Source of the DNA: an uncultured Fibrobacteraceae bacterium | Lineage (GTDB): Bacteria > Krumholzibacteriota > Krumholzibacteriia > LZORAL124-64-63 | NCBI GenBank assembly: GCA_964461255.1 | Contig: CAYWTR010000012.1 | Coordinates: forward strand, 3,694 to 67,693 | DNA: 64,000 bases | Direction: 5' to 3' | Shown: one piece after another, positions 28,632 to 49,650 of the stretch | How positions within the stretch are numbered: position 1 is the stretch's first letter | Layout of the letters: the number at the start of each line of letters is the position of its first letter | The notes under the pieces: generated by a model | Told to the model about the DNA's origin: nothing | Seen by the model: only the letters and a program-made list of their open reading frames with translations | The model's database searches: none | Position numbers and translations under genes: made by a program

Positions 28632-29162
28632 ATGCCGTGGCGGCGGCGCGCGGGGTTCGCGGCGGACATCCGACAGCTTCTGCGCGCGGCGGCGCCGCCG
28701 CCGCTGGAGCTGCCGCTGCGGCTGCTGGCGGCGGCCGGCGTGGTCATCGGCTTCGCGCTGGCCATCGCCGAATGGAACGACCTGCCCGCGCGCATCCCCA
28801 GCCACTTCGGCGCTGACGGGAGGCCGGATGCGTACGGCCCCAGGTCGACGCTGCTGTGGCTGCCGCTGCTCAGTCTCGCCCTGCTGGTCGGCCTCTCCCT
28901 GCTGGCGCGCCGGCCGGAGCATTTCAATTACCCGGTGGCGCTGACCCCCGAGAACGCCGCGCGGCAAGCCCGCCTGGCCCGCGAGCTGGTGGCGATGCTG
29001 CAGGCGGGGGTGGTCTGGCTGTTCGTGGTGATGCAGTGGCGCATCGTCGCCGTCGCCCGCGGCGGCGAGGGCGGTCTGGGCGCGTGGTTCCTGCCGCTCT
29101 TCCTGGCGCTCTCGTTTGCGCCCGCGATCATCTACCTGGTGCGGGCGCTGCGCGCGCGTTGA
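28632..29162 (+). CDS. DUF1648-type membrane protein
   Basis: 176 aa with 3-4 TM segments. RIPSHFGADGRPD motif typical of DUF1648/SdpI-like proteins. 7 nt after the isochorismatase stop. Confidence 0.6.
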   Translation: MPWRRRAGFAADIRQLLRAAAPPPLELPLRLLAAAGVVIGFALAIAEWNDLPARIPSHFGADGRPDAYGPRSTLLWLPLLSLALLVGLSLLARRPEHFNYPVALTPENAARQARLARELVAMLQAGVVWLFVVMQWRIVAVARGGEGGLGAWFLPLFLALSFAPAIIYLVRALRAR

Positions 29163-29184: not shown

Positions 29185-30678
29185 TCATCCCAGGCCGTAC
29201 TTCTCCAGGCGGTAGACCAGCACGTGGCGCGGGATGCCCAGGTAGGCCGCCGCTTTCGACTTGTTGCCGCCGTGCTTGGCCAGCGCCAGGCGTATCAGCT
29301 CCCGCTCCAGCGCCACCAGGGAGATGCCTTCCTCCGGCAGCGGGCCCAGCAGGGGCGCCGGCGCGGCGACCGGCGGCGGCGCGGGCGCGCCGGCCGGCGG
29401 CGGCTGCGCTGGCGGCGGCTGCACCGGCGGCGGCTGCACCGGCGGCGGCTGCACCGGCGGGCGTGCGCCTGCGCCCGCGGCCAGAGGCGCCGCGCCGGGA
29501 TCGAGCAGCGGCCCCAGAGGCTCGGCCCGCCGCAGATCGTCGGCGTCGAGCACGTCGCCGCGCCGCAGCAGCAGCAGGCGCAGGCTCAGGTTCAGCAGCT
29601 CGCGCACATTGCCGGGCCAGGCGCGCGCGCGCAGCTGCGCGGCCAGGGCCGGCGTCGTCGCCACGCCCTCCCCGCCGTGCACTCTGGTGAAATGCTCCCA
29701 CAGCAGCGGCACGTCCTCCGGGCGTTCACGCAGCGGCGGCACGTGCAGGTGCAGGACGGCCAACCGGTAGTACAGATCCTCGCGGAAGCGACCGGCGGCG
29801 ACATCGGCCCCGAGGTCGCGGTTGGTGGCGCAGACGAGGCGGAAATCGACCGGCACCGGACGCGGCCCCCCCACGGGATCGACCTGCCGGGTCTCCAGCA
29901 CCCGCAGCAGCTTGGGCTGCAGGGGCAGCGGCAGCTCGCCGATCTCGTCCAGGAAGAGCGTGCCGCCCGCCGCCGCCCGCACCCGGCCCGCCGCCGCGGC
30001 CGTGGCCCCGGTGAAGGCGCCGCGCGCGTGGCCGAACAGCTCCGATTCCATCAGCTGGGCGGGGATGGCGCCGCAGTTGACCGCCACGAAGGGTCGATCC
30101 CAGCGCGGCGACAGGTCATGGACCGCTCTGGCCACCAACTCCTTGCCCGTGCCGCTCTCGCCCGTGACCAGCACCGCCGCCTCGGTCGAGGCGACGCGCC
30201 GCACCTGCGCCAGCAGCCGCGCCATCGCCGCCGAGGCGTGCACGATCGCCGGGCGCTCGACCCGCGCGCGCAGCAGCCCGCGCAGGCTGCGATTCTCCGT
30301 CTCGAGCGCGCGCGTGCGCAGCGCCTTTTCCACGGTCAGGCGCAGCTCGTCGCGCTTGAACGGCTTGAGCAGGTACGAGAAGGCGCCGGCCTTCATGGCC
30401 TCGACCGCCTGGCCGACGTCGCCGAAGGCGGTCAGGACGATGACGGGGGGCGGCGCCGCCCGCCCGGACTCGCGCAGGTGGCGCAGCACCTCCATGCCGT
30501 CGGGCGGCGGCATGCGGATGTCGGTGAGCACGAGGTCGGGCTGGTCCTGGTCGCAGCGGCGCAGCCCTTCCTCGCCGCCCGCGGCGGCCAGCACCTCGTG
30601 GCCCGCCTCGGTCAGGATGAAGCCGACCACCTCGCGCAGGCCGGCGTCGTCGTCGATCACCAGGATGCGCGCCATCAT
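29185..30678 (-). CDS. Sigma-54-dependent response regulator (REC + AAA+ + Fis-HTH; NtrC family)
   Basis: 497 aa. REC (ILVIDDD...DLVLTDIRMP); Walker A GESGTGKE; GAFTGA sigma54-contact motif; ESELFGH; C-terminal HTH. Pro-rich PPVQPPPVQPPPVQPPPAQPPP insert from a 15-nt tandem repeat. Confidence 0.9.
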   Translation of the reverse strand: MMARILVIDDDAGLREVVGFILTEAGHEVLAAAGGEEGLRRCDQDQPDLVLTDIRMPPPDGMEVLRHLRESGRAAPPPVIVLTAFGDVGQAVEAMKAGAFSYLLKPFKRDELRLTVEKALRTRALETENRSLRGLLRARVERPAIVHASAAMARLLAQVRRVASTEAAVLVTGESGTGKELVARAVHDLSPRWDRPFVAVNCGAIPAQLMESELFGHARGAFTGATAAAAGRVRAAAGGTLFLDEIGELPLPLQPKLLRVLETRQVDPVGGPRPVPVDFRLVCATNRDLGADVAAGRFREDLYYRLAVLHLHVPPLRERPEDVPLLWEHFTRVHGGEGVATTPALAAQLRARAWPGNVRELLNLSLRLLLLRRGDVLDADDLRRAEPLGPLLDPGAAPLAAGAGARPPVQPPPVQPPPVQPPPAQPPPAGAPAPPPVAAPAPLLGPLPEEGISLVALERELIRLALAKHGGNKSKAAAYLGIPRHVLVYRLEKYGLG

Positions 30679-31724
30679 CCCTCCTCCGCGCCCGGCAGCT
30701 CGACCGTCACGCGCGCGCCGCCGCCGGGACGGTCGGCGGCGGCCAGGCGGCCGCCGTGATCCTCCGCGATGCGCAGCGCGATCGCCAGCCCCAGCCCGGT
30801 GCCGCCCTCCTTCGTGGTGTAGAACGGCTGCCCCAGATTCGCCAGCGCCTCCGCTCCGAAGCCGGGACCGTCGTCCTCCACCGTGCAGCTGACCGCCGCG
30901 CCCGCGCGCGCGATCTCGACCCGCACCATCCCCGCCGCGCCCGCCGCTTCCGCAGCGTTGAGCACGAGGTTCAGCAGCAGCTGCCGCAGCTGCTCGCGGT
31001 CGCCGCGCACCGCGGCCGCCGCCGCCGGCGGCGGTCCCGCCAGGCGCGGCGCGCCTGGCCGATGGCGCACCAGCTCCACGATGTCCCGCGCCTCGGCCGC
31101 CAGCTCTACCAGCTCCCGCCGCCCCTGCTGCGGGCGCGCGAAGGCCAGGAAGCGCGTCAGGACGGTGTTGAGCCGCCCCGATTCGTCCATCAGCACGCGC
31201 AGCAGGCGCCCCTTGTGGTGGCCCGGCGGGAAATCGTCCGCCAGCACCTCGGCTGCCCCCTGGATCGAGGCCAGCGGATTGCGGATCTCGTGCGCCAGCC
31301 CGGCCGACAGCCGCCCCACGGCGGCCAGCCGCGCCTGCCGCGCCAGCTGCGCCTCCGCGCTCTTTTTCTGGGCGACCGCGCGCCGCTCGCGCGACACCAG
31401 CATCCCCGCCACCAGCCCGACCGCGATGTACAACGCCATCTCCAGGCTCTTCTCCAGGGTCGGCGCGGGATCGCGGCCGATCACGCCGTAAGCGTGCGGG
31501 ATGTACAGCGCGCAGACGGCCAGCGCCGTGCCCAGCCCGGCCGGCCAGCCGCCGGTGAAGGCGGCCAGGATGATGGGGAAATAGTACAGGCGGCGGTAGA
31601 TGCCGTGGGCTCCGTGCAGATGGAAGGAGGTGCTGTAGTGCAGCAGGGTGATGGTGACCGTCATGGCGCCGATCGCGACCCAGCGCCGCCAGGCGATGCC
31701 GGCGCCCGCCGCCCGCGCGGCCAT
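30675..31724 (-). CDS. Membrane sensor histidine kinase (HisKA + HATPase_c)
   Basis: 349 aa. ~4 N-terminal TM helices; H-box LSAGLAHEIRNPL; N/G boxes (LNLVLNAAEA, DDGPGF, GGTGLGLAIA). ATGA overlaps at both ends. Confidence 0.8.
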   Translation of the reverse strand: MAARAAGAGIAWRRWVAIGAMTVTITLLHYSTSFHLHGAHGIYRRLYYFPIILAAFTGGWPAGLGTALAVCALYIPHAYGVIGRDPAPTLEKSLEMALYIAVGLVAGMLVSRERRAVAQKKSAEAQLARQARLAAVGRLSAGLAHEIRNPLASIQGAAEVLADDFPPGHHKGRLLRVLMDESGRLNTVLTRFLAFARPQQGRRELVELAAEARDIVELVRHRPGAPRLAGPPPAAAAAVRGDREQLRQLLLNLVLNAAEAAGAAGMVRVEIARAGAAVSCTVEDDGPGFGAEALANLGQPFYTTKEGGTGLGLAIALRIAEDHGGRLAAADRPGGGARVTVELPGAEEG

Positions 31725-32398
31725 CAGGAGGCCTCGGGGCGCGCCGCGCGCAGCCAGCGCACGGCCGCCGCCGCCAGCGCCGCCACCCCGCCCAGGTAGG
31801 CGGCGACCGGGAAGCGATCCGGCAACGTCCGGCCCAGGCCCGCGTCCAGGTCGCGCATGAACGTCCACAGCACCACCGCCGTCCCGGCCGCGGCCAGCAT
31901 CCAGGTCGCGCGATCGGCCCGCGGCCGGCGCCCGCGCGCCGCCGCCCCCACCGCCGCGATCCCCACGACGGCCATCAGCAGGGCGATCACGGCCGCCGTC
32001 CACCAGGGGGCGACCCAGGGCAGCGGCAGCAGGAACAGGATGTCCCACTCCCCCCAGCCGGCCGGCCAGTCCAGCGCGATCTTCAGCCCCGCGTAGTATG
32101 CCAGATCCCACACTCCGAACAGCGCCAGGAACCAGCCGAAGCGCTCGCCCGGACGGCGGCCGGCCAGCCAGGCGGCGGCGGCCAGGAGCATCAGCGTGGC
32201 GGCCTCGCGCGCCAGTTCCACGCGCAGCAGGGCGGGATCGATCGGGCGCAGCGGGAAGGCGAAGCCGCCGGGGTAGTACAGCCGCCGCAGGTAGACCACG
32301 ACCGCCGCCTCGATCCAGCCGAAGGCCGCGGCCAGCAGGCCGGCCGCAGCCAGCCGCGGTCGCAGCGAATCGTTCGCGGCCGGCGTCTCGAGGGTCAT
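31724..32398 (-). CDS. Small polytopic membrane protein (hypothetical, Trp-rich)
   Basis: 224 aa. ATG at 32398 overlaps the OmpA stop (ATGA) and its own TGA overlaps the HK ATG. 5-6 hydrophobic segments (WFLALFGVWDLAYYAGLKIALDWPAGWGEWDILFLLPLPWVAPWW). Confidence 0.5.
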   Translation of the reverse strand: MTLETPAANDSLRPRLAAAGLLAAAFGWIEAAVVVYLRRLYYPGGFAFPLRPIDPALLRVELAREAATLMLLAAAAWLAGRRPGERFGWFLALFGVWDLAYYAGLKIALDWPAGWGEWDILFLLPLPWVAPWWTAAVIALLMAVVGIAAVGAAARGRRPRADRATWMLAAAGTAVVLWTFMRDLDAGLGRTLPDRFPVAAYLGGVAALAAAAVRWLRAARPEAS

Positions 32399-33567
32399 GG
32401 CTTGCCTTCGTCGCCCGTCAGCACGACGACGTCGATGCGGCGGTTCTGGGCCCGCCCCTGCGGGGTGGCGTTCGAGGCCAGCGGCCGGTCGGGCCCGTGT
32501 CCGACCACCTCGACCATCTCGGCGGGCAGCGCCAGCCGCGCGCGCAGCAGGGCGGCGATCGTCTCGGCGCGCTCGCGCGACAGGCGCAGGTTGGCCTGCC
32601 GCCCGCCGGTGTCGTCGGTGTGGCCCTCGACCCTCAGCCGCGCGCCGGGGAACTCGCCCAGAGCGGCGATCGCCGTGTCGAGAAGGCGTTGCGAATCGGC
32701 GGCCAGAGCGGCCTGGCCGACGGGGAAGTTCAGCGCGCTCAGACGCATGATGACGTCGCCGGCCGGGCTCATCAGCACCTCGCATCCCAGCTTGCCAAAC
32801 TGCTCGCCCAGCCGCTTGACCGTCTCCTGGCGATGCTGCTTGGCGCGCAGCCGCGCCTCGGCGTGCGTCGCGTCGGCCTCCAGCTTGCCGGCGCGCAACT
32901 CGGTGCCCCAGAGCTGCTGCTCCAGGCGGCTGACCCGCTGCCGCAGCTCGTCGGCCACGGCCTCCTTGACCGCCAGGTCGTCCCGGCAGCGCTGCCGCTC
33001 GCTGCGCAGGGCGACGCGCAGGGAATCGAGCTGGTACTGCTGCTGCAGCCGCCGCCGGCCCAGCGAATCGATCAGGGCCTGCGCGGCCTCCGTCCCGGCG
33101 ACGCCGGGCGACAGCGACACGCCGGCCGCGCGCGCCAGATCGCTCAGGTCGCGGTCGTAGCGCAGCGCCACCGCCTCGTGATCGTTGCGGGCCAGACGCA
33201 GGTCGTTGACGAACCGCGCCAGGGCCGCCGCGCGTGCGGCCGACCTCTCGGCCGCGGCGAGTTCGGCCGCGTAGCGGCCGGCGCGCGCTCCCTCGGGATC
33301 GGCATCCAGCCGCGCCCGCAGCGAATCGATCGCGGCCGCGGCCTCGCGGTAGGCCGAGGGGACGCGGCGCGCGGCGCCGGCGTCGGCCGCTTCCTTCAGG
33401 CGCGCCCGCGCGGGCGCCAGCAGCTCTTCCGGCACCCGCCCCGGCGCCGCGCCGGCCGCGGCCGCCGCCGCCGTCAAGGCCAGCAGCGCCGCCGCCAACA
33501 GCAGCTGTGCCCTCGCGCTCCGCGGCCGCCGTCCGGCGCGCCGCCCGCCGCCAGCATCTGCGGACAT
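32395..33567 (-). CDS. OmpA/MotB-family peptidoglycan-binding protein with N-terminal coiled-coil
   Basis: ATG at 33567 with AGGAGGGG SD. Signal peptide; long Ala/Arg/Glu coiled-coil. C-terminal OmpA-like domain (NFPVGQAAL...RLRVEGHTDDTGG...NLRLSRERAE...NRRIDVVV). Confidence 0.75.
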   Translation of the reverse strand: MSADAGGGRRAGRRPRSARAQLLLAAALLALTAAAAAAGAAPGRVPEELLAPARARLKEAADAGAARRVPSAYREAAAAIDSLRARLDADPEGARAGRYAAELAAAERSAARAAALARFVNDLRLARNDHEAVALRYDRDLSDLARAAGVSLSPGVAGTEAAQALIDSLGRRRLQQQYQLDSLRVALRSERQRCRDDLAVKEAVADELRQRVSRLEQQLWGTELRAGKLEADATHAEARLRAKQHRQETVKRLGEQFGKLGCEVLMSPAGDVIMRLSALNFPVGQAALAADSQRLLDTAIAALGEFPGARLRVEGHTDDTGGRQANLRLSRERAETIAALLRARLALPAEMVEVVGHGPDRPLASNATPQGRAQNRRIDVVVLTGDEGKP

Positions 33568-33586
33568 GATCAACGCCCCTCCTGTT

Positions 33587-34630
33587 TCACGACCCGCCGC
33601 CCGTCGCGAGCTGCAGGGCCCTCCGCGCCGCCGCGACCACGGCGTCTACCTCGATCTCCAGCATGCAGTTCCAGAACCGGCAGCGTTCGCGGCGGCACGA
33701 CAGCCGCGCCGGGCAGGCCGCCGTCGCCGCGACCGTCTGCGCCCGCGGTCCCAACGGCCCCCAGCGCGCCGCGCTTTGGGCCGGCAGCGGCGGGTATACT
33801 CCCACCACGGCCAGCCCCAGCGCCGCCGCCATGTGCAGCGGCCCGGTGCTTGGTCCGATCAGCAGATCGCCGGCTGCCAGGAGGCTCAAGAACGACCGCA
33901 AATCGAACCGGCCCGCGACCGACGCCACCGCCGGCCCGGCGGCCGCCTGCGCCCGCGCCACGATGGCGGCGTCAGCAGCACCTCCGGTCAGCAGCACGCG
34001 CACTCCCGGCACGGCAGCCAGGCGGGCCGCCACGGCGCCGAAACGCTCGGGCGGCCAGTTCAAGGCCGAGCCGCCCGAGCCGGGATGGACGTACACCAGG
34101 GCGCGCGCGCCCGGCGCCCCCTCCGCCCGGAATCGTCGGCCCGCCTCGATCTGGGCCGCCGTCAGCCGCAGGCGCGGATCGGGCGGAGGCCCCGCGTCCG
34201 GCGGCGGCCCGCGCCCTTCCAACCGGCGCGCCAGCAGCACGTTGTAGTCGCGCTCGTGCCGCTGGACGCGCGAACGGCCCTGCCGCACGCCCTCGTTCAG
34301 CAGCAGCCAGCTTGACCACTTCGACAGGGGGCCGATCAGCCTCGGCACGCCGGCGCGCCGCAGCGCCGCGGCCAGCCGCTGCCGGTAGTGCAGCAGAACC
34401 GCGGCGTCGAATCGCGCCGCCGCCAGCTCGGCCGCCAGCGCCGGCAGCTCGCGCTCGCGCGCGGTCCAGACGCGCGCCACGCCAGGATCGTTCTCGACCA
34501 GCGGCGACGCCTCCGGCGCCACCAGCGCGTGCAGCTCCCAGCCCGGGTGGCGCGCCTTGAGGTCGGAGAACACCGGCAGCGACAGCACCACGTCGCCCAG
34601 CCGGTCGGTGCGCGCGATCAGCGCCTTCAC
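33587..34630 (-). CDS. Lipopolysaccharide heptosyltransferase (GT9 family)
   Basis: 347 aa from GTG 34630 (GTGA overlap with the upstream GT2). N-terminus VKALIARTDRLGDVVLSLPVF and C-terminal GPSTGPLHMAAALGLAVVGVY(PP) match RfaF/RfaC-type ADP-heptose transferases. Confidence 0.8.
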   Translation of the reverse strand: MKALIARTDRLGDVVLSLPVFSDLKARHPGWELHALVAPEASPLVENDPGVARVWTARERELPALAAELAAARFDAAVLLHYRQRLAAALRRAGVPRLIGPLSKWSSWLLLNEGVRQGRSRVQRHERDYNVLLARRLEGRGPPPDAGPPPDPRLRLTAAQIEAGRRFRAEGAPGARALVYVHPGSGGSALNWPPERFGAVAARLAAVPGVRVLLTGGAADAAIVARAQAAAGPAVASVAGRFDLRSFLSLLAAGDLLIGPSTGPLHMAAALGLAVVGVYPPLPAQSAARWGPLGPRAQTVAATAACPARLSCRRERCRFWNCMLEIEVDAVVAAARRALQLATGGGS

Positions 34631-35382
34631 GGCCGAACCGCTCGCCAGATCTTGACGTACTTGACCAGCACATAGAAGCCCGAACAGAGGCAGAGCACCA
34701 GGCCGTGCCAGCCGTCGAGGAAACCGCGCTGCAGCAGATACATGCGCAGGAACGCCGCCTGGGCGCGCAACGCCGCTCCAGGCAGGGTCGCGCGCCGGCC
34801 GTCGGCCACCGCGGCCGCCGCGGCCAGCGTGGTGTAGCGGTTGAGCTTCTCGACGTACTGCTCCATGCTGTCGTACGCATGGTGCAGCAGCCGTCCCGGC
34901 AGGCGCCCCAGCGGCGGCGGCGCCACCACCCCTTCGTGCACGGGCCGGTCGTCGAAGCGCGCGCGCTCGCGGTCGAACAGCCGCACCACCAGGTCGGGAT
35001 GCCACCCGCAGTGGCGGATCCAGCGGCCGAGGAACCGCGACAGACGATCGACCGCCAGGGCGGCCTGCGGCGGCGCATCCTGGCGGGCGCGCCAGGCGGC
35101 CAGCGCGCGACGCAGCTGGTCATCCAGCTCCTCGTCGGCGTCGATGCTCAGCACCCAGCGGTGCGACGCCTGCGCGACCGCCGCCTGCTTGGTCGGGCCG
35201 AAGCCGCGCCACTCGCCCTGGACCACGCGCGCCCCCCGGCGCGCGCACAGCTCGGGCGTGCCGTCGTCGCTGGCCTGGTCCAGCACGACGACCTCGTCCA
35301 CGGCGCCCGCCAGCGAATCGAGGCAGCGCTCCAGCCCGGCCGACGCCGCGTTGCGGGTGATGATCACCGCCGAGATCTTCAC
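34627..35382 (-). CDS. Family 2 glycosyltransferase (LPS-core type), paralog of 3728..4531
   Basis: 251 aa. GTG start with GGAGG SD. ISAVIITRN...LDQASDDGT...SIDADE...VHEG...YTTL aligns block-for-block with the GT2 at 3728..4531. Confidence 0.8.
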   Translation of the reverse strand: MKISAVIITRNAASAGLERCLDSLAGAVDEVVVLDQASDDGTPELCARRGARVVQGEWRGFGPTKQAAVAQASHRWVLSIDADEELDDQLRRALAAWRARQDAPPQAALAVDRLSRFLGRWIRHCGWHPDLVVRLFDRERARFDDRPVHEGVVAPPPLGRLPGRLLHHAYDSMEQYVEKLNRYTTLAAAAAVADGRRATLPGAALRAQAAFLRMYLLQRGFLDGWHGLVLCLCSGFYVLVKYVKIWRAVRP

Positions 35383-36437
35383 GCCGTCGCCTCCGGCGGC
35401 GCGGCGGCGTTGTCATCCGCCAGCAGGACGACCTTGCCGATGTTCCGCCGGTCCTGCAGGTAGTGGTGCGCGGCGGCCGCCTCGGCCAGCGGGAAGGCGC
35501 GGCCCACGTGCGGCTGCAGCTTCCCCTCGGCCAGCAGCGCCAGCAACCGCAGCGCCCAGCCTCGCACCCGATCCTGCTCCTCCCACAGCCGGCCCAGATT
35601 CACCCCCAGCACGCCGCGGTTGTCGTTCATCAGGCGCAGCGGGTTGATGGCCAGCCACGGCACCTGGGCCAGCGTGCGCAGCGCGGCCAGCCTCCCGCCG
35701 CGCTTGCCGGCCGCGGCGCTGGAGAAGCCGAACAGCACCAGCCGCCCCGTCGGCGCCAGCGACCGGTAGCTCTCCATGATCCAGCGCCCGTGGCGCGGCT
35801 CCAGGGCGATGTCGACGCCGCGCCCGCCCGTCGCCGCGCGCACCTCGGCCGCGAAGCGCGGCGCCAGGGACGAGAAGACATGCGCCAGGCCGCGCTGCCG
35901 CAGGAAATCGTGCTTGGACGGCGAGGCCGAGCCGATCACGCGCGCTCCGGCCAGGCGGCAAAGATCGACCGCCGCCAGCCCCACGCCGCCGGCGGCGCCG
36001 TGCACCAGCACGGCATCGCCGCTCTGGACGCCGGCCATCACCGTGAGCATCTGGTAGGCGGTCAGGTAGTTGACGGGCAGGGCCGCCGCCACCGCCGGCG
36101 CGATGCCCGGCGGCAGCGGCAGCGCCGCGGCGGCCGGCACGCACAGGCAATCGGCGTAGCCCCCGAAGCGCGTGAAGACGGCCACCGTCCGCCCCAGCAG
36201 CTCGGCGGGCGCCCCTTCTCCCAGGGCGTCGACGGTCCCTGCCGCCTCGTAGCCGGGCACCGCGGGCAGAGGCGGGGCGTCCGGGTAGACCCCCAGCCGC
36301 ATCATGACGTCCGCGAAATTGACGCCGCAGGCGGCGACGCGCAGGCGCACCTGGCCCGGACCGGGCGCGGGATCGGGCGCCTCGCGCACGACCAGCACCT
36401 CGGGCGGGCCCTGGCGGGTGATCCAGACCTGGCGCAT
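35379..36437 (-). CDS. Zinc-type (MDR superfamily) NAD(P)H:quinone oxidoreductase / alcohol dehydrogenase-like
   Basis: 352 aa. GroES-like N-terminal domain (VRLRVAACGVNFADVMMRLG); Rossmann GAAGGVGLAAVDL; VAT-1/QOR-like C-terminus. Confidence 0.8.
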   Translation of the reverse strand: MRQVWITRQGPPEVLVVREAPDPAPGPGQVRLRVAACGVNFADVMMRLGVYPDAPPLPAVPGYEAAGTVDALGEGAPAELLGRTVAVFTRFGGYADCLCVPAAAALPLPPGIAPAVAAALPVNYLTAYQMLTVMAGVQSGDAVLVHGAAGGVGLAAVDLCRLAGARVIGSASPSKHDFLRQRGLAHVFSSLAPRFAAEVRAATGGRGVDIALEPRHGRWIMESYRSLAPTGRLVLFGFSSAAAGKRGGRLAALRTLAQVPWLAINPLRLMNDNRGVLGVNLGRLWEEQDRVRGWALRLLALLAEGKLQPHVGRAFPLAEAAAAHHYLQDRRNIGKVVLLADDNAAAPPEATA

Positions 36438-36470
36438 GAGGCCCCTCGCGCGGCTGGTGGCGGCCGGCGA

Positions 36471-37001
36471 TCAGCGCGGCAAAGGCGCCACGGTCAGCCG
36501 GACGTCGTCGATCCAGACTTTGCCCTCGCCCTCGATGACCAGGTTCAACCGCACCCGGTCGGGCACTTGCCCCTTTTCGAGACGGAAGATCGCCTGCGCC
36601 TCCCGCCACTCCGTCGTGCGGCCGATCGCGCTCTCGAGACCCCGGCCGAAATACTCGTCGGTGCCCGGCAGCCGCACCCAGGTCTCCAGGAAGACCCGCC
36701 GCCGCAGGGCCTCGCAGCGCAGGCGCGCCTGCCACACCAGCAGGCAGTCATCGACCCCGGGATTCTCCAGCGCGAACAGCCGCACCACGCGCGGCCGCGT
36801 CGCGGTCACGCGCAGGGAGGCGCGACCGTCGGTGTGGATCTCGTGGTCGATGGCCAGGTCCTCGTCGCTGTCCAGGATCTCCTCGAGGCTGTCCAGCGGG
36901 TAGGCGGCCAGTTCGCGCGGACCGCCGCCGCCACCACCGCCGCAGCCGGCGGCCAGCAGCGCGCCGCACAGGGCCGCGAGCGTCATCAGACGGGCAAGCA
37001 T
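36471..37001 (-). CDS. Lipoprotein (hypothetical)
   Basis: ATG at 37001 with AGGAGGA SD. Lipobox LLAAGC followed by a Gly run. 176 aa, no family recognised. Confidence 0.5.
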   Translation of the reverse strand: MLARLMTLAALCGALLAAGCGGGGGGGPRELAAYPLDSLEEILDSDEDLAIDHEIHTDGRASLRVTATRPRVVRLFALENPGVDDCLLVWQARLRCEALRRRVFLETWVRLPGTDEYFGRGLESAIGRTTEWREAQAIFRLEKGQVPDRVRLNLVIEGEGKVWIDDVRLTVAPLPR

Positions 37002-37107
37002 GCCATCCTCCTGCGCCGGCGCGGCGCGGCGGCGCCACCGCCGCCGGCCGCCGGCTCGGCCAAGGTACCACACGGCCGCGGCGATCTCCAGCGCGGCCGG
37101 GCCGTCA

Positions 37108-38466
37108 TCAGCGCGGCTCCGCCGCAGCCATGGCTCGCCGCAGCCGCGGCAGATCAGCGGCGGCCGCCCCCTCGATCACGTGCACGACGGCGCCGTCGCG
37201 CGCGACCTGCCAGCGCAGGCCGCTGCCGGGGCGACCGTACGACCCGCGCGCCAGCCGGACGACGCCGAGCCGGCGGACCAGGGCCTGTTCGTAGGCATCG
37301 GCGAACGCCGCGGCCTCGCCCTCGCCGCGCCAGGCCGACCACCACAACAGCGCCAGCGGGCCGCGCGGCGCCTCCAGCGCCACGAGCAGATCGCCGGCCC
37401 AGCCGGCGGCCAGGTCGCGCGCCGCCGCGCCCCGGCCGTGCTGCTGGAAGAAGATGCGCACCAGCAAGGCGCCGGCGGTGTCGGCATGACGCACGCGCGC
37501 GCCCGGCAACAGCCGCGACGCGGGCGGCAGCGGAAAGCGCACAACCGGTTCGCGGGCGAAATGGCGCTCAGGATGCAGGACATGAGCCGTGGCGGCGGGC
37601 GCACGCGCGAACAGGCTGTCCTGCCATCCCGCGCCGTAGCGCTGGCGCGCCCGCGCGGCAAAACCGGCGCCCGCCAGGTAGGCCAGCAGCAGAGGCTGGC
37701 TCAGCACGGCCGGGGCCTCCGCGAGCGCGACCACGCCGGCGGGATCGGCGCCGCCGGCCAGGCCCAGCCGCGCCGCCTGGCCCAGCAGCGCATCCAGCGG
37801 CAGATCGGCCAGCATCCCCAGCATCCCGGCCGCCGCGTCGGCGGCCGCCGCGGCCCGGGGCCCCGGCGCGCCCAGCCGCAACATGACCCAGGTGGCGTGG
37901 CCTTCCACCAGGAAATGCCCTGCCGCGCGGGCATCCCCGGACAGGGTATCGGCCGGCGCGGCCAGCCCCAGCAGCCGATCGAGATCGTGATGCTGGTCCT
38001 GAAGGGCGTGCGCCAGTTCGTGCGCCAGCACCAGCTCGAATTCGGCGGATGCCTCGCCCTGCGGCAGAATGCACAGCCGCTCGGTCTCGCTGTCGTAGAA
38101 AGCGGCGGCGGCGGCGGCGACCAGGTCGAGCTGCAGCGCGCCCAGATCGCCGCCTGGAGGAAGCAGGCCCAGCCGCTGCAGAACGCGAGCGACCTCGGCG
38201 CGCCGGTCGGGCGGCGTCTGGGCGTCCAGCATCTCGGCCGCGCGCAGGCGAAACTCCTCCAGGCTGAGCGCTTCCACCGTCACCGGCCGCAGCAGCGGCC
38301 AGCCGGTCACGGCCGCCGCCGAGTCGGCCAGGTCGGCGACGCGCTCCGACCAAGACGGCGCGACCGCGGCGGGAGCCGCGGTCGCGTTCGCCGGCCAGCC
38401 GAGCAAGCCGAGGACCGCCGCCAGCGCCGAGGCGCCGGCCGCCCCCGCCCCGCGCGGCGGCCTCAG
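37108..38466 (-). CDS. Putative zinc metallopeptidase (HEXXH: LAHELAHALQDQHH), start uncertain
   Basis: Open frame from just after the OPT stop to TGA at 37108. HEXXH motif mid-protein. Signal-like ALAAVLGLLGWPANA near the N-terminus but no in-frame ATG/GTG before GTG at 38310; a CTG/TTG start or the shorter 38310 start is possible. Confidence 0.4.
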   Translation of the reverse strand: MRPPRGAGAAGASALAAVLGLLGWPANATAAPAAVAPSWSERVADLADSAAAVTGWPLLRPVTVEALSLEEFRLRAAEMLDAQTPPDRRAEVARVLQRLGLLPPGGDLGALQLDLVAAAAAAFYDSETERLCILPQGEASAEFELVLAHELAHALQDQHHDLDRLLGLAAPADTLSGDARAAGHFLVEGHATWVMLRLGAPGPRAAAAADAAAGMLGMLADLPLDALLGQAARLGLAGGADPAGVVALAEAPAVLSQPLLLAYLAGAGFAARARQRYGAGWQDSLFARAPAATAHVLHPERHFAREPVVRFPLPPASRLLPGARVRHADTAGALLVRIFFQQHGRGAAARDLAAGWAGDLLVALEAPRGPLALLWWSAWRGEGEAAAFADAYEQALVRRLGVVRLARGSYGRPGSGLRWQVARDGAVVHVIEGAAAADLPRLRRAMAAAEPR

Positions 38467-40493
38467 TCCTTCTCCCGCCGCGCGCTCAGCGAGGCGCGGA
38501 CCAGATAGACGGCCAGCAGCGTCAGCATCACGAGCGAGAGTACGGCCGAGCCCGGGTTGGCGGTCGCCCAGTGCTCCAGACCCACCGCCAGGCCCAGGGT
38601 CCAGTCGTCGTTGCCGACGATCATGCGGCCGAAGAAGGTGACCAGCGCAGCCACCACGCCCATGATGGCGCCGCCGGCGATGAATCCGGAAGCGATGAGC
38701 GTCCCCTTCTCGCGCCGGGCGGAGTTCACATCGTCCTTCTTGCTGCGGGTGGCCACGATGTGGGCCAGGATGCCGCCCAGCAGGACCGGAGTGTTCAGGT
38801 GCAGCGGCAGGTACATGCCGAGGGCGAACGCCAGCGGTGGCACCTTCACGAACTCCAGGATCAGCGCCATCATGACGCCGGCGAGGTAGAGCAACCAGGG
38901 CGCGGGAGCGCCCGTCATCAGCGGCTTGAGCACTGCCGCCATGGCGCTGGCCTGCGGCGCCTCCAGCCCGCCCTTTTCGGCGCCGAAGCCGTAGGTCTTG
39001 TTCAGCAACAGGATGACGCCGCCGACCGCCGCCGCGGCGAACAGCACGCCCAGGAACTTGTACCGCTGCTGAACCGCCGGCGTGGTGCCGAGCCAGTAGC
39101 CGACCTTCAGGTCGGTGATGAAGCCGCCCGCCATCGACAACGCCGTGCAGACCACGCCGCCGATCAGCAATGCCGCCACGATGCCGGCGTCGCCCTTGAG
39201 CCCGATGTTGACCAGGATGACCGACGACAGGATCAAGGTCATCAGGGTCATGCCCGAGACCGGATTCGAGCCGACGATCGCGATCGCTCGCGCCGCCACG
39301 GTGGTGAACAGGAACGAGATGATGGTCACGATCAGGAGCCCGGCCACCGCCCAGCCGAGGTTCCCGACCACGCCCAGCCAGAAGAACAGGAAAACCGCCG
39401 TGAGGGTCAGCACGGTGAAGAAGGCGATCCACTTCATCGGCAGGTCGCGCTGCGTCCGCTCCGCCTGGGCGGCGTCGGTGCGTCCGCCGCCCTTGATCTC
39501 GTGCAGGGCCAGCTGGAAGGCGCCCCAGATGATCTTGCGCGATTTGAAGACGCCGATCAGGCCGGCCATGGCGATCCCGCCGATGCCGACGTGCCGGACG
39601 TAGTTTGTGAAGACCTCGCTGGGGGTCATGTCGGCGATCAGCTTGGTGGTCGAGGCCCCCAGCACCGCCGTCAGCCCGCCGCCGATGTAGCTGAAGGCCG
39701 GCACGAGCACCCACCAGGAAAGGAACGAGCCGGCGCAGATGATGGAGGCGTAGCGCAGCCCGATGATGTAGCCCAGCCCCACCACGGCGGCGCCGACGTT
39801 GATCCGGAAATCGAGGTGGACCGTCGCCGCCAGCTTCTGGCCCCACTTGAACACGGTGGTCGAGAAGACCTCGCGCCACAGTTCGAAGGCGCTGATCGCG
39901 AAGTCGTACAGGCCGCCGACCATCGCCGCCCGCACCAGCGTCTTGGCCTGGTCGCCGCCAGCCTCGCCCGCCACCAGCACCTCGGTCGTGGCCGTGGCTT
40001 CCGGGAACGGGAACTCGCCGTGCATGTCCTTGACGAAGTACTTGCGGAACGGGATCAGGAACAGCATGCCGAGCACGCCGCCCAGCACCGACGCCATGAA
40101 CACGCGGAAGAATCCGGCCTGCTTGTCCAGCTCCAGGATGTAGAGGCCGGGAATGGTGAAGATGGCCCCGGCCACGATCAGGCCCGAGGCGGCGCCGATC
40201 GACTGGATGATGACGTTCTCCTGCAGCGCGTTCTTGCGCTTCATCGCCACCGAGGTGCCGACGGCCAGGATGGCGATCGGGATGGCCGCCTCGAAAACCT
40301 GGCCGATCTTCAGCCCCAGATAGGCCGCCGCGGCGGAGAACAGGACCGCGTAGAAAAGCCCCCAGCCCACCGAGTAGCGCGTCGCCTCCGGCACGATCTT
40401 GTCGGCCGGCACGACCGGCACGTACTGCTCGCCCGGCTTGAGCAGGCGATAAGCGTTCTCGGGCAGGCCCTTGCCCTTGCCACTGATTTCCAT
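38463..40493 (-). CDS. OPT-family oligopeptide transporter
   Basis: 676 aa from ATG 40493 (GGAGGTG SD). ~16 TM segments with OPT-family architecture and conserved Gly-rich helices (GLKIGQVFEAAIPIAIL..., NPVSGMTLMTLIL). Confidence 0.85.
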   Translation of the reverse strand: MEISGKGKGLPENAYRLLKPGEQYVPVVPADKIVPEATRYSVGWGLFYAVLFSAAAAYLGLKIGQVFEAAIPIAILAVGTSVAMKRKNALQENVIIQSIGAASGLIVAGAIFTIPGLYILELDKQAGFFRVFMASVLGGVLGMLFLIPFRKYFVKDMHGEFPFPEATATTEVLVAGEAGGDQAKTLVRAAMVGGLYDFAISAFELWREVFSTTVFKWGQKLAATVHLDFRINVGAAVVGLGYIIGLRYASIICAGSFLSWWVLVPAFSYIGGGLTAVLGASTTKLIADMTPSEVFTNYVRHVGIGGIAMAGLIGVFKSRKIIWGAFQLALHEIKGGGRTDAAQAERTQRDLPMKWIAFFTVLTLTAVFLFFWLGVVGNLGWAVAGLLIVTIISFLFTTVAARAIAIVGSNPVSGMTLMTLILSSVILVNIGLKGDAGIVAALLIGGVVCTALSMAGGFITDLKVGYWLGTTPAVQQRYKFLGVLFAAAAVGGVILLLNKTYGFGAEKGGLEAPQASAMAAVLKPLMTGAPAPWLLYLAGVMMALILEFVKVPPLAFALGMYLPLHLNTPVLLGGILAHIVATRSKKDDVNSARREKGTLIASGFIAGGAIMGVVAALVTFFGRMIVGNDDWTLGLAVGLEHWATANPGSAVLSLVMLTLLAVYLVRASLSARREKD

Positions 40494-40768
40494 GGGCACC
40501 TCCGGTCGATGGACCACGCCGGCGACGCCCGGCGGACGTCTCGGCGGCTGGGCGACGGATCCGCGCAAGATAGCACGCGCGCCGGCGCAGCGTAAAGCGC
40601 GGGTCTGTCCTGTGCGGGCCTGGCCTGGACGAGGCCGGCGCCGCCGCCGCGATCCCGGCGGTGCTTGCCTGGACGGTCCCCGGGGGGTTACCTTGGCCCG
40701 GTTGGGGCCGTTCCCGACACGGCCCGCCCGGCGGCACTGCCCCACGCTCTTGGCCAGGGAGGAGACGC

Positions 40769-42034
40769 ATGCTCAAGCGCAATCCCGATTCCAGGTTCCC
40801 GAGCCTGCTGGACCGTTTTCTCAAGTACGTCCGCATCCACACCGCCTCCAAGGAAGGCTCGGACACCTACCCGTCGACCGCCTGCCAGCTCGACCTGGCG
40901 CGCGAGCTCGTCGGGGAGCTCAAGGAACTCGGACTCGCCGACGCCGCCGTCGACGAGCACGGATACGTGACCGCCTCGCTGCCGGCCAATTTCCCCGGCG
41001 GGGAGAAGGTTCCGGTGATCGCCTTCATTTCGCACATGGACACCTACCCCGAGGTGCCGGGCGAGAACGTCAAGCCGCAGCTCCATCACGGCTACCGCGG
41101 CGGCGACATCGCGCTGCCGTCCGGCGTGGTGATCAAGGCGCAGGACAATCCCTATCTGGCCGAGTGCGTCGGCGAGACGATCATCACCTCCGACGGCACG
41201 ACGCTGCTCGGCGCGGACGACAAGGCCGGCATCGCCGAGATCATGGAGGCGCTGACCCGGATGGTCGAGAACCCGGAGTTCCGCCACGGCACGGTCAAGG
41301 TGGCCTTCACCCCCGACGAGGAGGTCGGCGCCGGGGTCAAGCATTTCGACGTGGCGAAATTCGGCGCCCTGGTGGCGTACACCATGGACGGCGGCCGCCG
41401 CGGTGAGATCGAGAACGAGACCTTCTGCGCGGACACGGCGATCGTGACCTTCACCGGCAAGGACATCCACCCCGGCTACGCCAAGGGCAAGATGATCCCC
41501 TCGATCAAGGTGGCCGGCGCCTTCCTGGCCTCGCTGCCGCGCGAGGGGGCGCCCGAGACCACGGCGGGGCGCGAGGGCTACATCCACCCCATCTCGATCG
41601 AGGGCAACACCAGCGCGACCAAGGTCAGCCTGCTGATCCGCGACTTCGACGTCGCGCAGCTCAAGCCCAAGGCCGAGGCCATCCGGCGCCACGCCGAGGA
41701 TGCCTGCCGCCGGTGGCCCGGCGCCTCGTTCCAGCTCGAGATCAAGGAATACTACCGGAACATGAAGTACGATCTCGAGAAGGAGCCGCGCGCGGTCGCC
41801 TACGCCATGGAGGCGATCCGCCGCGTGGGCATCGAGCCGCTGCTGGGCTCGATCCGGGGCGGCACGGACGGCTCGAACCTGAGCGCCCGCGGGCTGCCGA
41901 CGCCGAACATCTTCACCGGCGAGCAGAGCTTCCATAGCTACGGGGAGTGGATCTGCGCCAAGGACATGGAGCTGGCCACGCAGGCCATCCTGCAGACGGT
42001 GGCTGTCTGGACCGAAAAGAGCGCCGCGGCCTGA
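40769..42034 (+). CDS. pepT: Peptidase T (tripeptide aminopeptidase, M20B)
   Basis: 421 aa. GGGAGGAG SD. PepT N-terminus LLDRFLKYVRIHTASKEGSDTYPST; metal ligands in ISHMDT, GADDKAG and EEVGAGVKHF; C-terminal GGTDGS. Confidence 0.9.
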   Translation: MLKRNPDSRFPSLLDRFLKYVRIHTASKEGSDTYPSTACQLDLARELVGELKELGLADAAVDEHGYVTASLPANFPGGEKVPVIAFISHMDTYPEVPGENVKPQLHHGYRGGDIALPSGVVIKAQDNPYLAECVGETIITSDGTTLLGADDKAGIAEIMEALTRMVENPEFRHGTVKVAFTPDEEVGAGVKHFDVAKFGALVAYTMDGGRRGEIENETFCADTAIVTFTGKDIHPGYAKGKMIPSIKVAGAFLASLPREGAPETTAGREGYIHPISIEGNTSATKVSLLIRDFDVAQLKPKAEAIRRHAEDACRRWPGASFQLEIKEYYRNMKYDLEKEPRAVAYAMEAIRRVGIEPLLGSIRGGTDGSNLSARGLPTPNIFTGEQSFHSYGEWICAKDMELATQAILQTVAVWTEKSAAA

Positions 42035-48803: not shown

Positions 48804-48811
48804 GTCAGGTT

Positions 48812-48990: not shown

Positions 48991-49024
48991 AAGTCAAGTG
49001 ATGATAGGGCAGGAAATCGTTGTA

Positions 49025-49042
49025 TGCAACATTTATGTTGCA
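49025..49042. promoter_or_regulatory. Perfect palindrome TGCAACAT-TT-ATGTTGCA (candidate operator) in AT-rich island upstream of trxA
   Basis: 8-bp perfect inverted repeat with 2-nt spacer, in the divergent region between the sigma54-regulator gene and trxA. Confidence 0.3.
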
Positions 49043-49280
49043 ACGATTATGCTGCGCAGCCGCGTAAATTCTGGGTGGGGACAATGGGACCGCATTGGGT
49101 GACGGTGCCGATATGTATGTAAAGTATTTTAATTAATACAATTAAGAACCTATACAAGGTCGCGATGATTTCACGAAGAGATGGCATGCACTCTGCTATG
49201 GATGGCGGCGGATAGCTTTTCTGAACTCATGGCGCAACATACCGCAAGGTCGGCGCCGCCCAAGTTGAAAGGAGCGAGCG

Positions 49281-49607: not shown

Positions 49608-49650
49608 GTCGATCCGGTCCGGCCGACGGGCCACGCGGCGACGCGGCAGG

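Follow-up and report, generated by a model that had tools for sequence, protein, structure and literature searches.

CusR and CzcR are OmpR-type regulators that act at sigma-70 promoters. The zinc-linked ZraSR (HydHG) two-component system of E. coli and Salmonella activates sigma-54 promoters via upstream enhancer sites in a metal/envelope stress response (PMC4987338). VAT-1 is an NADPH-dependent quinone oxidoreductase that has been implicated in phosphatidylserine transport (PMC7822847). Here, we describe a run of genes with resemblances to parts of these systems in a Krumholzibacteriia-like genome, of which a 64-kb stretch of DNA (the window) was analysed. Our preferred reading, to which we give a probability of about 0.6, is a lineage-specific juxtaposition of three units that includes a regulator acting on a distal efflux operon.

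Every coding sequence between 29185 and 40493 is on the minus strand, as the original prediction had it. It had also counted eleven genes in this interval; ten were found, and independently made gene calls on public contigs match these in length. Every family assignment that had been made earlier was confirmed by Pfam. The run, its neighbors and its non-coding elements are as follows:

40769-42034, plus strand: M20 peptidase gene, the divergent upstream neighbor
40567-40596, minus strand: OPT promoter-like element, TTTACG, 18 nt, TGC-TATCTT (extended -10)
38463-40493, minus strand: OPT-family oligopeptide transporter, 676 aa, predicted to be monocistronic (Pfam OPT, E 3.6e-100)
38408-38466, minus strand: stable GC-rich hairpin directly 3' of the OPT stop codon (dG -49.4 kcal/mol)
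37108-38406, minus strand: putative HEXXH (HELAH) metallopeptidase, DUF8575/DUF6782/Hvo_1808-like, 432 aa, putative TTG start
37062-37090, minus strand: envelope-operon promoter-like element, TGGAGA, 17 nt, TGG-TACCTT, ending 60 nt before the lipoprotein ATG
36471-37001, minus strand: lipoprotein, 176 aa, with an LLAAGC lipobox
35379-36437, minus strand: MDR-superfamily oxidoreductase, 352 aa, no signal peptide (Pfam ADH_N/ADH_zinc_N)
34627-35382, minus strand: GT2 glycosyltransferase, 251 aa, its GTG start overlapping the MDR stop (Pfam Glycos_transf_2)
33587-34630, minus strand: GT9 (heptosyltransferase-family) glycosyltransferase, 347 aa (Pfam Glyco_transf_9, E 4.6e-18)
32395-33567, minus strand: OmpA-like peptidoglycan-binding protein, 390 aa (Pfam OmpA at residues 281-376)
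31724-32398, minus strand: Trp-rich integral membrane protein, 224 aa
30675-31724, minus strand: histidine kinase, 349 aa, HisKA and HATPase_c, with an AtoS/ZraS-like core
29185-30678, minus strand: NtrC-type sigma-54 activator with REC, AAA+ with GAFTGA, Pro-rich repeat linker and Fis-type HTH
28632-29162, plus strand: DUF1648 gene, the convergent downstream neighbor

Ten same-strand genes in a row are not unusual in a bacterial genome, and the real signal of this run is the tight coupling within its last eight genes. From the OPT gene to the regulator gene, the junctions measure +56, +106, +33, -4, -4, +19, -4, -1 and -4 nt. All gaps save that between the peptidase and lipoprotein genes (+106 nt) had been put at 35 nt or less, which is correct for the remaining junctions but not for OPT/peptidase (56 nt). 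Five ATGA/GTGA overlaps had likewise been reported; four are 4-nt overlaps of this kind (GTGA, GTGA, ATGA, ATGA), and the fifth is a 1-nt TGATG. Tight or translational coupling runs throughout lipoprotein-MDR-GT2-GT9-OmpA-membrane protein-kinase-regulator, and to that extent the earlier reading of the locus stands; it does not extend to the OPT and peptidase genes as part of the operon.

The OPT transporter (NCBIfam TIGR00733, 258 bits against a cut-off of 182) is preceded by a promoter-like element that recurs as cTTGTC-N17/18-TGnTAnnnT at the equivalent position in 10/10 related loci. The extended -10 motif, TGNTANNNT, occurs only 9 times on both strands of the 64-kb window, with eight of these occurrences upstream of genes, as judged by reading their positions. 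The hairpin behind the gene (z -3.46; 1/200 shuffles) has strong counterparts, placed alike, in six relatives (z -2.5 to -6.2); it has no U-tract and may serve as a terminator or attenuator. In relatives L007 and L083, genes on the opposite strand intervene between OPT and the lipoprotein gene or core. Together, the promoter-like element, the hairpin and these opposite-strand genes predict that OPT is a separate transcription unit. The HEXXH peptidase gave zero tblastn matches against the related loci, and its gene appears to be an insertion specific to this organism. The promoter-like element before the lipoprotein gene is conserved in 8/8 related loci (consensus TGGAGA-N17-TGTGnTAAnnT), with TTGGTC or TGGCCA replacing TGGAGA in the -35 region of L083 and L088. 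This conserved, predicted internal promoter and the post-OPT hairpin argue against the single operon from 40493 to 29185 that had been proposed; from these elements, the run is predicted to form at least two transcription units.

Among the products of the eight coupled genes, the lipoprotein has no family match in Pfam or NCBIfam. Foldseek matched its AF2 model (pLDDT 85.5) to CBM22, CBM16 and a hyaluronan-binding module (E about 1e-6, TM 0.5-0.63), which suggests a carbohydrate-binding-module-like jelly-roll fold. The MDR protein is a homologue of eukaryotic VAT-1: its phmmer match to the VAT-1 entry 6lhr in the PDB (E 5.7e-70) is full-length, covering residues 16-339, and stronger than those to a VAT-1-like protein (1.3e-51) and the best other quinone oxidoreductases (around 1e-42 to 1e-43). 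The GT9 protein belongs to its family by PF01075 (65.9 bits vs a cut-off of 22) and has weak matches to WaaF and WaaC in the PDB, but it scores below every NCBIfam cut-off for heptosyltransferases I, II and III (TIGR02195, 87 vs 134.6; TIGR02193, 66 vs 185.3; TIGR02201, 65.7 vs 170.2). No ADP-heptose or Kdo genes were seen within the 64-kb window. The two genes had been called LPS-core glycosyltransferases: the GT2 and GT9 families hold, whereas LPS-core is a putative role, the GT9 scoring under all of these cut-offs. The OmpA-like protein consists of an N-terminal signal/anchor, a further stretch of about 230 aa, and a C-terminal OmpA domain, with structure matches (YiaD, YfiB, MotB and others) confined to residues about 260-385.

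For the Trp-rich membrane protein, sequence searches of Pfam, NCBIfam and the PDB gave no significant match; across its family, Pfam gave a sub-threshold SfLAP match in 1/26 members and nothing else, and the profile had 0 matches in the PDB at E<=1. Its AF2 model (pLDDT 91.3) had no fold match in the PDB by Foldseek (best E 0.65, TM 0.28). It has 584 matching stretches in genome contigs, in variable context, and probably represents an undescribed family with a predicted fold that lacks a known counterpart. The histidine kinase has a DUF4118-type N-terminus with about 3 TM helices and no periplasmic domain, and PF13493 (DUF4118) is recorded for many of its orthologues. The regulator is a sigma-54 activator by its Pfam matches (Sigma54_activat, E 1.4e-68; Response_reg; HTH_8) and visible GAFTGA, and its recognition helix reads PRHVLVYRL.

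Conservation of gene order is nested, with MDR-GT2-GT9-OmpA joined by the lipoprotein, then the membrane protein, then the kinase and regulator, each addition occurring in a successively smaller set of relatives. The four-gene block is maintained throughout a Krumholzibacteriia-like clade and is present in all of about 20 loci that have a GT9 of >=48% identity and are long enough to reveal it; where these extend beyond OmpA, the membrane protein, kinase and regulator are often lacking. In more than 15 distant loci, GT2 and GT9 lie side by side or are fused. The lipoprotein-to-regulator order is shared by another four genomes (L007/L090, L086, L174 and, without the membrane protein, L170). A single operon conserved as a block is not what these comparisons reveal: the order is only nested and modular, OPT is split off in L007 and L083, and the peptidase is organism-specific. 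The two-component system had also been taken as the envelope genes' own. Five genomes (L083, L088, L101, L102 and L105) carry the envelope genes without the kinase-regulator pair, and orthologues of the pair are found on CusA/CzcA-type efflux operons in L171, L173 and L175, both of which contradict that view.

The search for a sigma-54 promoter suggested earlier, upstream of 40493 and inside the cluster, was negative: scanning the intergenic parts of 29185-40800 with <=2 mismatches detected no TGGCAC-N5-TTGCW in the window, nor was any found in the relatives. The best intergenic sigma-54-like site in the cluster (8/11) lies inside the OPT hairpin and is not conserved in relatives. Neither enhancer dyads nor -24/-12 sites were found in any cluster locus, in the window or in the relatives. 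A promoter-like site of this type occurs elsewhere in the window, before an efflux operon:

17219-17258, minus strand: putative enhancer made up of the dyads TGAATACTATTCTCGA and TCGCCAATATTCTCCA at 24 bp spacing, with an AT-rich tract behind
17140-17155, minus strand: sigma-54 -24/-12 promoter-like site TGGAACATCTCTTGCC, 88 nt upstream of the OEP ATG
11004-17052, minus strand: efflux operon, the probable regulator target, without an adjacent kinase or regulator gene
15736-17052, minus strand: outer-membrane factor (Pfam OEP)
14258-15739, minus strand: CusB/CzcB-type adaptor with a heavy-metal-binding domain (Pfam HlyD_D23 and HMBD)
11004-14261, minus strand: CusA/CzcA-family RND pump (Pfam ACR_tran, E 9e-202)

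The pump scores 1029.5 on NCBIfam TIGR00914 (cut-off 701.45) and, with the HMBD adaptor and OEP protein, identifies a CusA/CzcA efflux system. Orthologues of the kinase-regulator pair (55-70% identity) occur in cluster context in L086, L170, L174 and L007 and in efflux context in L171, L173 and L175; in L173 and L175, the pair belongs to the efflux operon itself. Efflux operons that carry the orthologous pairs are preceded by a -24/-12 promoter and by two TGGAGAATATTCTCCA dyads at 24 bp spacing, and the layout at 17140-17258 is identical: in the window, L173 and L175, two dyads 24 bp apart lie 79-91 bp upstream of the -24/-12 site (79 bp in the window). The window dyads are degenerate, with 3 mismatches each to TGGAGA-N4-TCTCCA, and one half of the second dyad is weak. 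With only 30-42% identity between the window's efflux proteins and those of L173 and L175, strict orthology of the efflux operons is uncertain. Transketolase and RNase T genes adjoin the efflux operon both in the window and in L175. The kinase-regulator orthologues have diverged from the window pair about as far as transketolase and RNase T have in the same genomes, which argues for orthologues that moved and not for old paralogues. The PRHVLxYR recognition helix is identical in all compared orthologous regulators, and the window's other sigma-54 activator has a different recognition helix and, at 49.0-49.2 kb, a promoter of its own and a different palindrome. In L083, the cluster is without the kinase-regulator pair and the efflux operon is absent beside RNase T, a co-absence from a single genome. 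From these comparisons, we infer that the sigma-54 two-component system most likely controls the efflux operon 12 kb away, not the neighboring glycosyltransferase genes.

Under the preferred reading, OPT, a peptide-transporter gene, would stand alone with a sigma-70-type extended -10 promoter and a terminator-like hairpin of its own, and a strain-specific HEXXH peptidase gene was presumably inserted behind it. An eight-gene transcript would be driven by another promoter, immediately 5' of the lipoprotein gene. The conserved core of this transcript, comprising a carbohydrate-binding lipoprotein, a cytoplasmic VAT-1-like NAD(P)H oxidoreductase, GT2, GT9 and a periplasmic OmpA-type peptidoglycan-binding protein, most likely builds or decorates an LPS-core-type envelope glycolipid and tethers the outer layers to the cell wall. 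A sub-lineage would then have gained three genes at the 3' end of the operon, namely the membrane protein, an intramembrane-sensing histidine kinase and the NtrC-type regulator. The latter two would not act through sigma-54 on the glycosyltransferase genes; they are orthologues of the pair on or next to the CusCBA/CzcCBA-type heavy-metal efflux operon in sister genomes. The phosphorylated regulator may bind the paired TGGAGAATATTCTCCA-like dyads at 17219-17258 and activate the -24/-12 promoter at 17140-17155, turning on the efflux operon. With their genes carried on the envelope-operon transcript, sensor and regulator levels would vary with the expression of that operon. The component parts are ordinary, and the case is informative on how regulators move.

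We consider it unlikely that the cluster pair is a paralogue with another target, with the efflux operon at 11-17 kb served by a pair outside the window. The kinase-regulator family is large, with hits at E<1e-20 in the thousands, and in L171 and L172 it appears in a third context, together with an S8 peptidase. The genome was viewed through 64 kb, so that a paralogous pair elsewhere could serve the efflux operon or the cluster pair could have other targets. However, the housekeeping-like divergence of the pair, the invariant recognition helix and the separate HTH and enhancer of the one other sigma-54 activator in the window count against this, as does the efflux operon, which has no regulator nearby although its place in the backbone is that of the L175 operon with the attached pair.

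It is quite improbable that the regulator acts on the envelope operon without sigma-54, whether in addition to the efflux operon or in its place, by binding TGGAGA(T) at the lipoprotein-gene -35 in autoregulation or repression, for which NtrC at some sigma-70 promoters provides a precedent. TGGAGA resembles one half-site of the family dyad and is present at -35 in the pair-carrying loci (window, L007/L090, L086, L174) and in L091, whose contig stops before the pair's position, and the two loci with a different -35 (L083, L088) are without the pair. Yet this is a half-site only, with the second half absent 4 nt away, the six genomes sampled are phylogenetically non-independent, and L172 shows that real autoregulatory sites of this family are full dyad pairs. 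The original idea, in which the ten genes make up a single envelope-remodelling operon or regulon under its own sigma-54 two-component system, is very improbable: the single strand, the short or overlapping junctions and the OPT-to-regulator order shared with L007, L086 and L174 are outweighed by the lack of -24/-12 sites and enhancer dyads in front of OPT, in front of the lipoprotein gene and in the gaps (window and relatives), the internal promoter-like element and post-OPT hairpin, the opposite-strand genes that split OPT from the core in two relatives, and the core without the two-component system in at least 5 genomes.

With distal control of the efflux operon as the preferred reading, the locus compares with known systems as follows. 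As in waa (rfa) clusters, the GT9 and roughly 250-aa GT2 genes are adjacent and translationally coupled, and elsewhere the pair stands beside an O-antigen-ligase-like gene and more GT9 and GT4 genes. Unlike waa, the GT9 here falls under every heptosyltransferase equivalog cut-off, and no waaA, heptose-synthesis or lipid A genes were found near the cluster in the window. To our knowledge, a VAT-1-like MDR, a CBM-like lipoprotein and an OmpA-like protein are partners in no described waa cluster. The MDR shares full-length homology with VAT-1 (E 5.7e-70; about 40% identical by alignment inspection), but it is bacterial and its operon partners are glycosyltransferases. Like the OmpA-C-like peptidoglycan anchors YiaD, YfiB, Pal and MotB, the OmpA-like protein has a C-terminal OmpA-family domain, with strong matches, whereas the roughly 230-residue N-terminal region has neither a PDB homologue nor a Pfam domain.

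The probable target resembles CusCBA/CzcCBA in its outer-membrane factor, HMBD-bearing CusB/CzcB adaptor, CusA/CzcA-family pump and, presumably, two-component control, but its promoter is of the sigma-54 -24/-12 type with NtrC-type dyads. ZraSR likewise pairs a histidine kinase with an NtrC-type REC-AAA+-HTH activator, and the best NCBIfam matches of the kinase and regulator include the models for ZraS and ZraR, all under cut-off. The kinase here differs in its DUF4118-type membrane domain (about 3 TM helices) in place of a periplasmic metal-sensing loop domain, and no divergent zraP-like gene is present. Unlike in ZraSR, the likely target here is an RND efflux operon, and the regulator genes end an unrelated envelope operon, away from that target.

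Ten co-directional genes occupy positions 29185-40493 on the minus strand, essentially the run of the original prediction, which had counted eleven genes and misjudged one gap. Because the region is 72-76% G+C, genes were called from codon-position G+C combined with ORFs, and identical protein lengths are called on this sequence in other, independent public assemblies. The exact sequence is present in an NCBI assembly and in Logan read-archive assemblies, with the contig occurring in SRR22026047 and SRR14520559. The genes are as follows:

38463-40493 (-): OPT transporter
37108-38406 (-): HEXXH protein (peptidase)
36471-37001 (-): lipoprotein of 176 aa
35379-36437 (-): MDR oxidoreductase
34627-35382 (-): GT2 glycosyltransferase
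33587-34630 (-): GT9 glycosyltransferase
32395-33567 (-): OmpA-like protein
31724-32398 (-): Trp-rich membrane protein of 224 aa
30675-31724 (-): histidine kinase
29185-30678 (-): sigma-54 response regulator

Successive junctions from OPT to the regulator measure +56, +106, +33, -4, -4, +19, -4, -1 and -4 nt, and the run lies between an M20 peptidase gene that diverges from it and a DUF1648 gene that converges on it. Pfam and NCBIfam agree with the family labels first given; since gene calls, family assignments and junctions all concur, the run holds, apart from its gene count and the one gap. Several window proteins have their nearest named relatives in MAGs labelled Candidatus Krumholzibacteria or Krumholzibacteriia.

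In order to compare gene order, 80 loci on one-genome-per-species contigs were anchored on the Trp-rich membrane protein and 80 metagenome loci on GT9, contigs encoding specific homologues were added, and the ten window proteins were searched against related loci by tblastn. These comparative data argue that the ten genes are not one operon; their conservation is nested. GT9 is directly preceded by GT2 in more than 15 distant loci (about 30% identity), and in about 10 distant metagenome loci (L119, L122, L127, L129, L133, L138, L143, L145, L148 and L150) a single ORF of about 500-650 aa encodes both as a fusion, which supports the idea that the enzymes act jointly. The fusion in L129 (9155-10993; 612 aa) carries both Pfam domains and faces a convergent gene for a Wzy_C (O-antigen-ligase-like) membrane protein; distant GT2-GT9 loci adjoin an O-antigen-ligase-like gene or additional GT9/GT4 genes. 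At a distance of 30 kb the window has a second GT2 gene (3713-4531, +), 37% identical to that of the cluster, with an aldehyde dehydrogenase gene as its neighbour.

The order MDR-GT2-GT9-OmpA is kept in all of the roughly 20 loci with a GT9 of at least 48% identity that reach far enough to show it, and the lipoprotein gene precedes MDR only in a closer sub-clade (L007/L090, L083, L086, L088, L091 and L174). In a distant sub-clade (L094, L101, L102 and L105), OPT is followed by a YchJ-like gene, an unrelated 602-aa gene and MDR, and no genes resembling the membrane protein, kinase or regulator follow OmpA. The 602-aa protein was tested as a diverged lipoprotein or peptidase and is neither. The membrane protein gene follows OmpA in the window, L007, L083, L086, L088, L100 and L174; it is missing there from L170, in which the kinase gene overlaps the OmpA gene directly. 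Kinase and regulator accompany the cluster in the window, L007, L086, L170 and L174 and are absent from the clusters of L083 and L088, and the contigs of L100 and L087 end after reaching the kinase gene. A counterpart of the HEXXH peptidase was found in none of the related loci. Genes on the opposite strand split OPT from the lipoprotein gene in L083 (two genes) and L007 (a CX5R phosphatase-like ORF). M20, OPT, the core genes, isochorismatase, PLD, UDP-glucose dehydrogenase, transketolase and RNase T form a backbone common across the lineage, so the adjacency of OPT is better read as an inherited neighbourhood than as an operon.

Two further differences between loci were seen. Between M20 and OPT, L083 (269-1461) and L086 (846-1855) carry opposite-strand genes for a GT2 and a small LAB_N protein (lipid A biosynthesis N-terminal domain), which are absent from that place in the window. 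In L174, a gene for a 510-aa TMEM260_N-domain protein (12664-14196) follows the regulator gene on the same strand.

All statements on transcription and regulation made here are predictions from comparing sequences. A generic promoter and terminator scan returned no promoters, and terminators at background level only; for this high-GC lineage, promoter-like motifs had to be derived instead by aligning the upstream regions of orthologous genes. The predicted OPT promoter, present in 10 of 10 loci, reads cTTGTC (TTTACG in the window), 17-18 nt, TGnTAnnnT, and that of the lipoprotein gene (P_lipo; eight of eight loci) reads TGGAGA, 17 nt, TGTGnTAAnnT. Counted on both strands of the 64-kb window (128 kb), the extended -10 motif TGnTAnnnT (TGNTANNNT) is found at nine places only, and by our reading eight of the nine are intergenic, upstream of a gene and correctly oriented; being rare and mostly upstream of genes, it appears usable as a promoter marker in this high-GC lineage. 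The positions are:

37062-37090: predicted P_lipo, ending 60 nt before the ATG
26180, 37070, 40575, 42163, 43128/43135, 58862 and 62540: extended -10 motif upstream of genes

The motifs at 43128 and 43135 together make up the palindrome TTAATGATATCATTAA ahead of a Band_7 gene.

A long GC-rich hairpin lies directly 3' of the OPT stop codon (38408-38466; -49.4 kcal/mol, z -3.5), and six relatives have strong hairpins of unrelated sequence in the same place (z -2.5 to -6.2); no stability beyond that of shuffled sequence was seen for hairpins in the gap between the peptidase and lipoprotein genes or 3' of the regulator gene. On the basis of the conserved promoter-like motifs and the post-OPT hairpin, at least two transcription units are predicted. 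The first would carry OPT, with the peptidase possibly expressed by read-through, and the second the eight genes from lipoprotein to regulator. What survives of the single envelope-remodelling operon or regulon proposed originally is this tightly coupled eight-gene unit, which is real and conserved in a small clade; a sigma-54 operon of ten or eleven genes does not, and a metal-efflux system is the most likely source of the regulator.

With its REC, AAA+ (GAFTGA) and Fis-type HTH domains, the regulator is a complete activator of the NtrC type. A 15-nt tandem repeat (29394-29460, -; 4.5 copies, 94% matches) encodes its PPVQP-type proline-rich linker between the AAA+ lid and the HTH, a region that varies among the orthologues aligned. 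The kinase has about three N-terminal TM helices, no periplasmic domain and an AtoS/ZraS-like catalytic core, and DUF4118 is recorded for its orthologues. No sigma-54 promoter resembling TGGCAC-N5-TTGCW exists in the intergenic DNA of the cluster or upstream of OPT. The search covered 11 related loci as well as the cluster and the DNA upstream of it, allowed up to 2-3 mismatches to the consensus, required GG/GC, and gave no intergenic or conserved site. Where the pair is known to be present (window, L007, L086 and L174), and also in L091, the -35 element of P_lipo reads TGGAGA, which is one half of the regulator dyad; in L083 and L088, the two loci without the pair, it is different.

Orthologues of the pair at 55-70% identity are abundant. 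Three settings are seen for them outside the cluster: L173 and L175 carry the pair at the 3' end of an OEP-CusB/CzcB-RND operon, L171 has it divergent from an operon of this kind, and in L171 and L172 it precedes an S8 peptidase gene. Efflux operons with the pair have a -24/-12 site upstream of the OEP gene and paired dyads near TGGAGA(A/C)TATTCTCCA. In L172, from a Krumholzibacteria genome, two perfect or near-perfect dyads (TGGAGAATATTCTCCA and TGGAGACTATTCTCCA; 9931-9980), 34 bp apart, lie directly upstream of the kinase gene, and the S8 peptidase gene follows the pair, which suggests that the pair is autoregulated in that context. A single dyad with two mismatches (TGGAGAATATTCCGCA; L105, 10134-10149) inside the GT9 coding region of a cluster lacking kinase and regulator may be due to chance.

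The window holds a CusA/CzcA-type efflux operon of the same design:

15736-17052 (-): OEP
14258-15739 (-): HMBD-bearing adaptor
11004-14261 (-): RND pump (TIGR00914, 1029 bits; cut-off 701)
17243-17258 and 17219-17234: two dyads (putative enhancer) upstream of OEP, followed by an AT-rich tract
17140-17155: predicted -24/-12 site TGGAACATCTCTTGCC, followed by an 88-nt leader to OEP

The dyads are spaced 24 bp apart in the window, L173 and L175, and the second dyad lies 79, 89 and 91 bp, respectively, from the -24 element. No kinase or regulator gene stands beside the window operon, which adjoins RNase T and transketolase in the same backbone position as in L175, where the pair is attached. The recognition helix PRHVLxYR is identical among these regulators. 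The only other sigma-54 activator in the window, a PAS-domain protein (47346-48809, -), differs in its helix (DRTTLWRKL) and has a palindrome of its own, with a -24/-12 site preceding a thioredoxin gene:

49269-49607 (+): thioredoxin gene, divergent from the PAS-AAA+-HTH activator gene
49608-50660 (+): sulfatase-like gene
about 49020-49045: palindrome TTGCAACATTTATGTTGCAA, followed by an AT-rich tract
49182-49197: TGGCATGCACTCTGCT

We therefore propose, with a probability of roughly 0.55-0.6, that the two-component system of the cluster would control the efflux operon 12 kb away. Elsewhere in the window, a gene of the Na+/H+ exchanger family (57242-58588, +) is directly preceded by a fluoride riboswitch (57182-57245, +; Rfam RF01734, 55 bits).

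The cluster-linked and efflux-linked pairs could be ancient paralogues, or a single orthologous pair that changed position. Pair identity is 55-64% between the window and efflux-linked genomes, where transketolase/RNase T are 65-69% identical, and 61-65% between the window and cluster-linked L007/L174 (transketolase/RNase T, 72-73%). Because pair divergence is in line with that of transketolase/RNase T and similar for both groups of genomes, the single relocated pair is favoured. The proposed link to efflux is further supported by L083: its cluster is without the pair, and no efflux operon stands beside RNase T there.

As judged from families and context, the conserved core genes (lipoprotein, MDR, GT2, GT9 and OmpA) would most simply make up an envelope-glycolipid (LPS-core-type) glycosylation unit with a wall anchor. 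The MDR protein is homologous over its full length to eukaryotic VAT-1 (E 5.7e-70; about 40% identity on inspection of the alignment), which is an NADPH quinone oxidoreductase and has also been linked to the transfer of phospholipids (PMC7822847). A lipobox is present in the lipoprotein, whose model (pLDDT 85.5) matches carbohydrate-binding modules, among them CBM22, CBM16 and one that binds hyaluronan (E ~1e-6, TM 0.5-0.63); homologues of the lipoprotein outside the clade (Acidobacteriia, Binatia) show no linkage to MDR or glycosyltransferase genes. GT9 is a member of its family scoring below every heptosyltransferase equivalog cut-off. In the OmpA-like protein the C-terminal peptidoglycan-binding domain is well supported, and no homologue of the N-terminal 230 or so residues was detected.

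The Trp-rich membrane protein (13 Trp in 224 residues) belongs to a family with at least 584 confirmed matches in the one-genome-per-species collection, from the FCB group, Nitrospirota and others. Sequence and profile searches of Pfam, NCBIfam and PDB gave no match, and its confident AlphaFold model (pLDDT 91.3, pTM 0.87; six helices and a beta-hairpin) has no structural neighbour among PDB folds. No conserved neighbour recurs in more than 9 of 70 distant loci, so that context gives no function. The invariant residues include E30, R38, E61, R64, E65, T68, W97, D98, Y102, W111, P112 and D119, and the Glu, Arg and Asp among them suggest an enzyme or transporter.

A joint reading, which we regard as improbable, would make the CBM-like lipoprotein, VAT-1-like oxidoreductase, GT2, GT9 and OmpA-like anchor an undescribed envelope-glycolipid modification and tethering system of Krumholzibacteriia, the VAT-1 homologue handling a lipid-linked intermediate. 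With its new fold and invariant Glu/Arg/Asp residues, the membrane protein would act as a novel enzyme in the membrane or relay signals as partner of the intramembrane kinase, and envelope-glycan status would directly set the level and activity of the sigma-54 regulator commanding metal efflux.

For operon calling, the case cautions against assigning a regulator to the genes beside it on the strength of tight co-directional packing, even with start/stop overlaps. As the comparison suggests, one orthologous kinase-regulator pair is attached in some genomes to the efflux operon that it targets, and in others it lies 12 kb from that operon, within an envelope operon unrelated to it; this makes it a case in which the relocation of a regulator can be followed in an uncultivated phylum. 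Also gained are working promoter models for Krumholzibacteriia-like genomes, one of the sigma-70 type with an extended -10 and one of the sigma-54 type whose enhancer is TGGAGAATATTCTCCA. Two proteins stand out as functional leads, namely the bacterial homologue of VAT-1, which is locked into an operon together with glycosyltransferases, and the membrane protein, whose widespread family has no known fold. All parts are of known kinds, and what is new is their arrangement and two uncharacterised proteins. Although the ZraSR membership tests place the cluster pair outside that system, the pair is similar to ZraSR in logic (PMC4987338).
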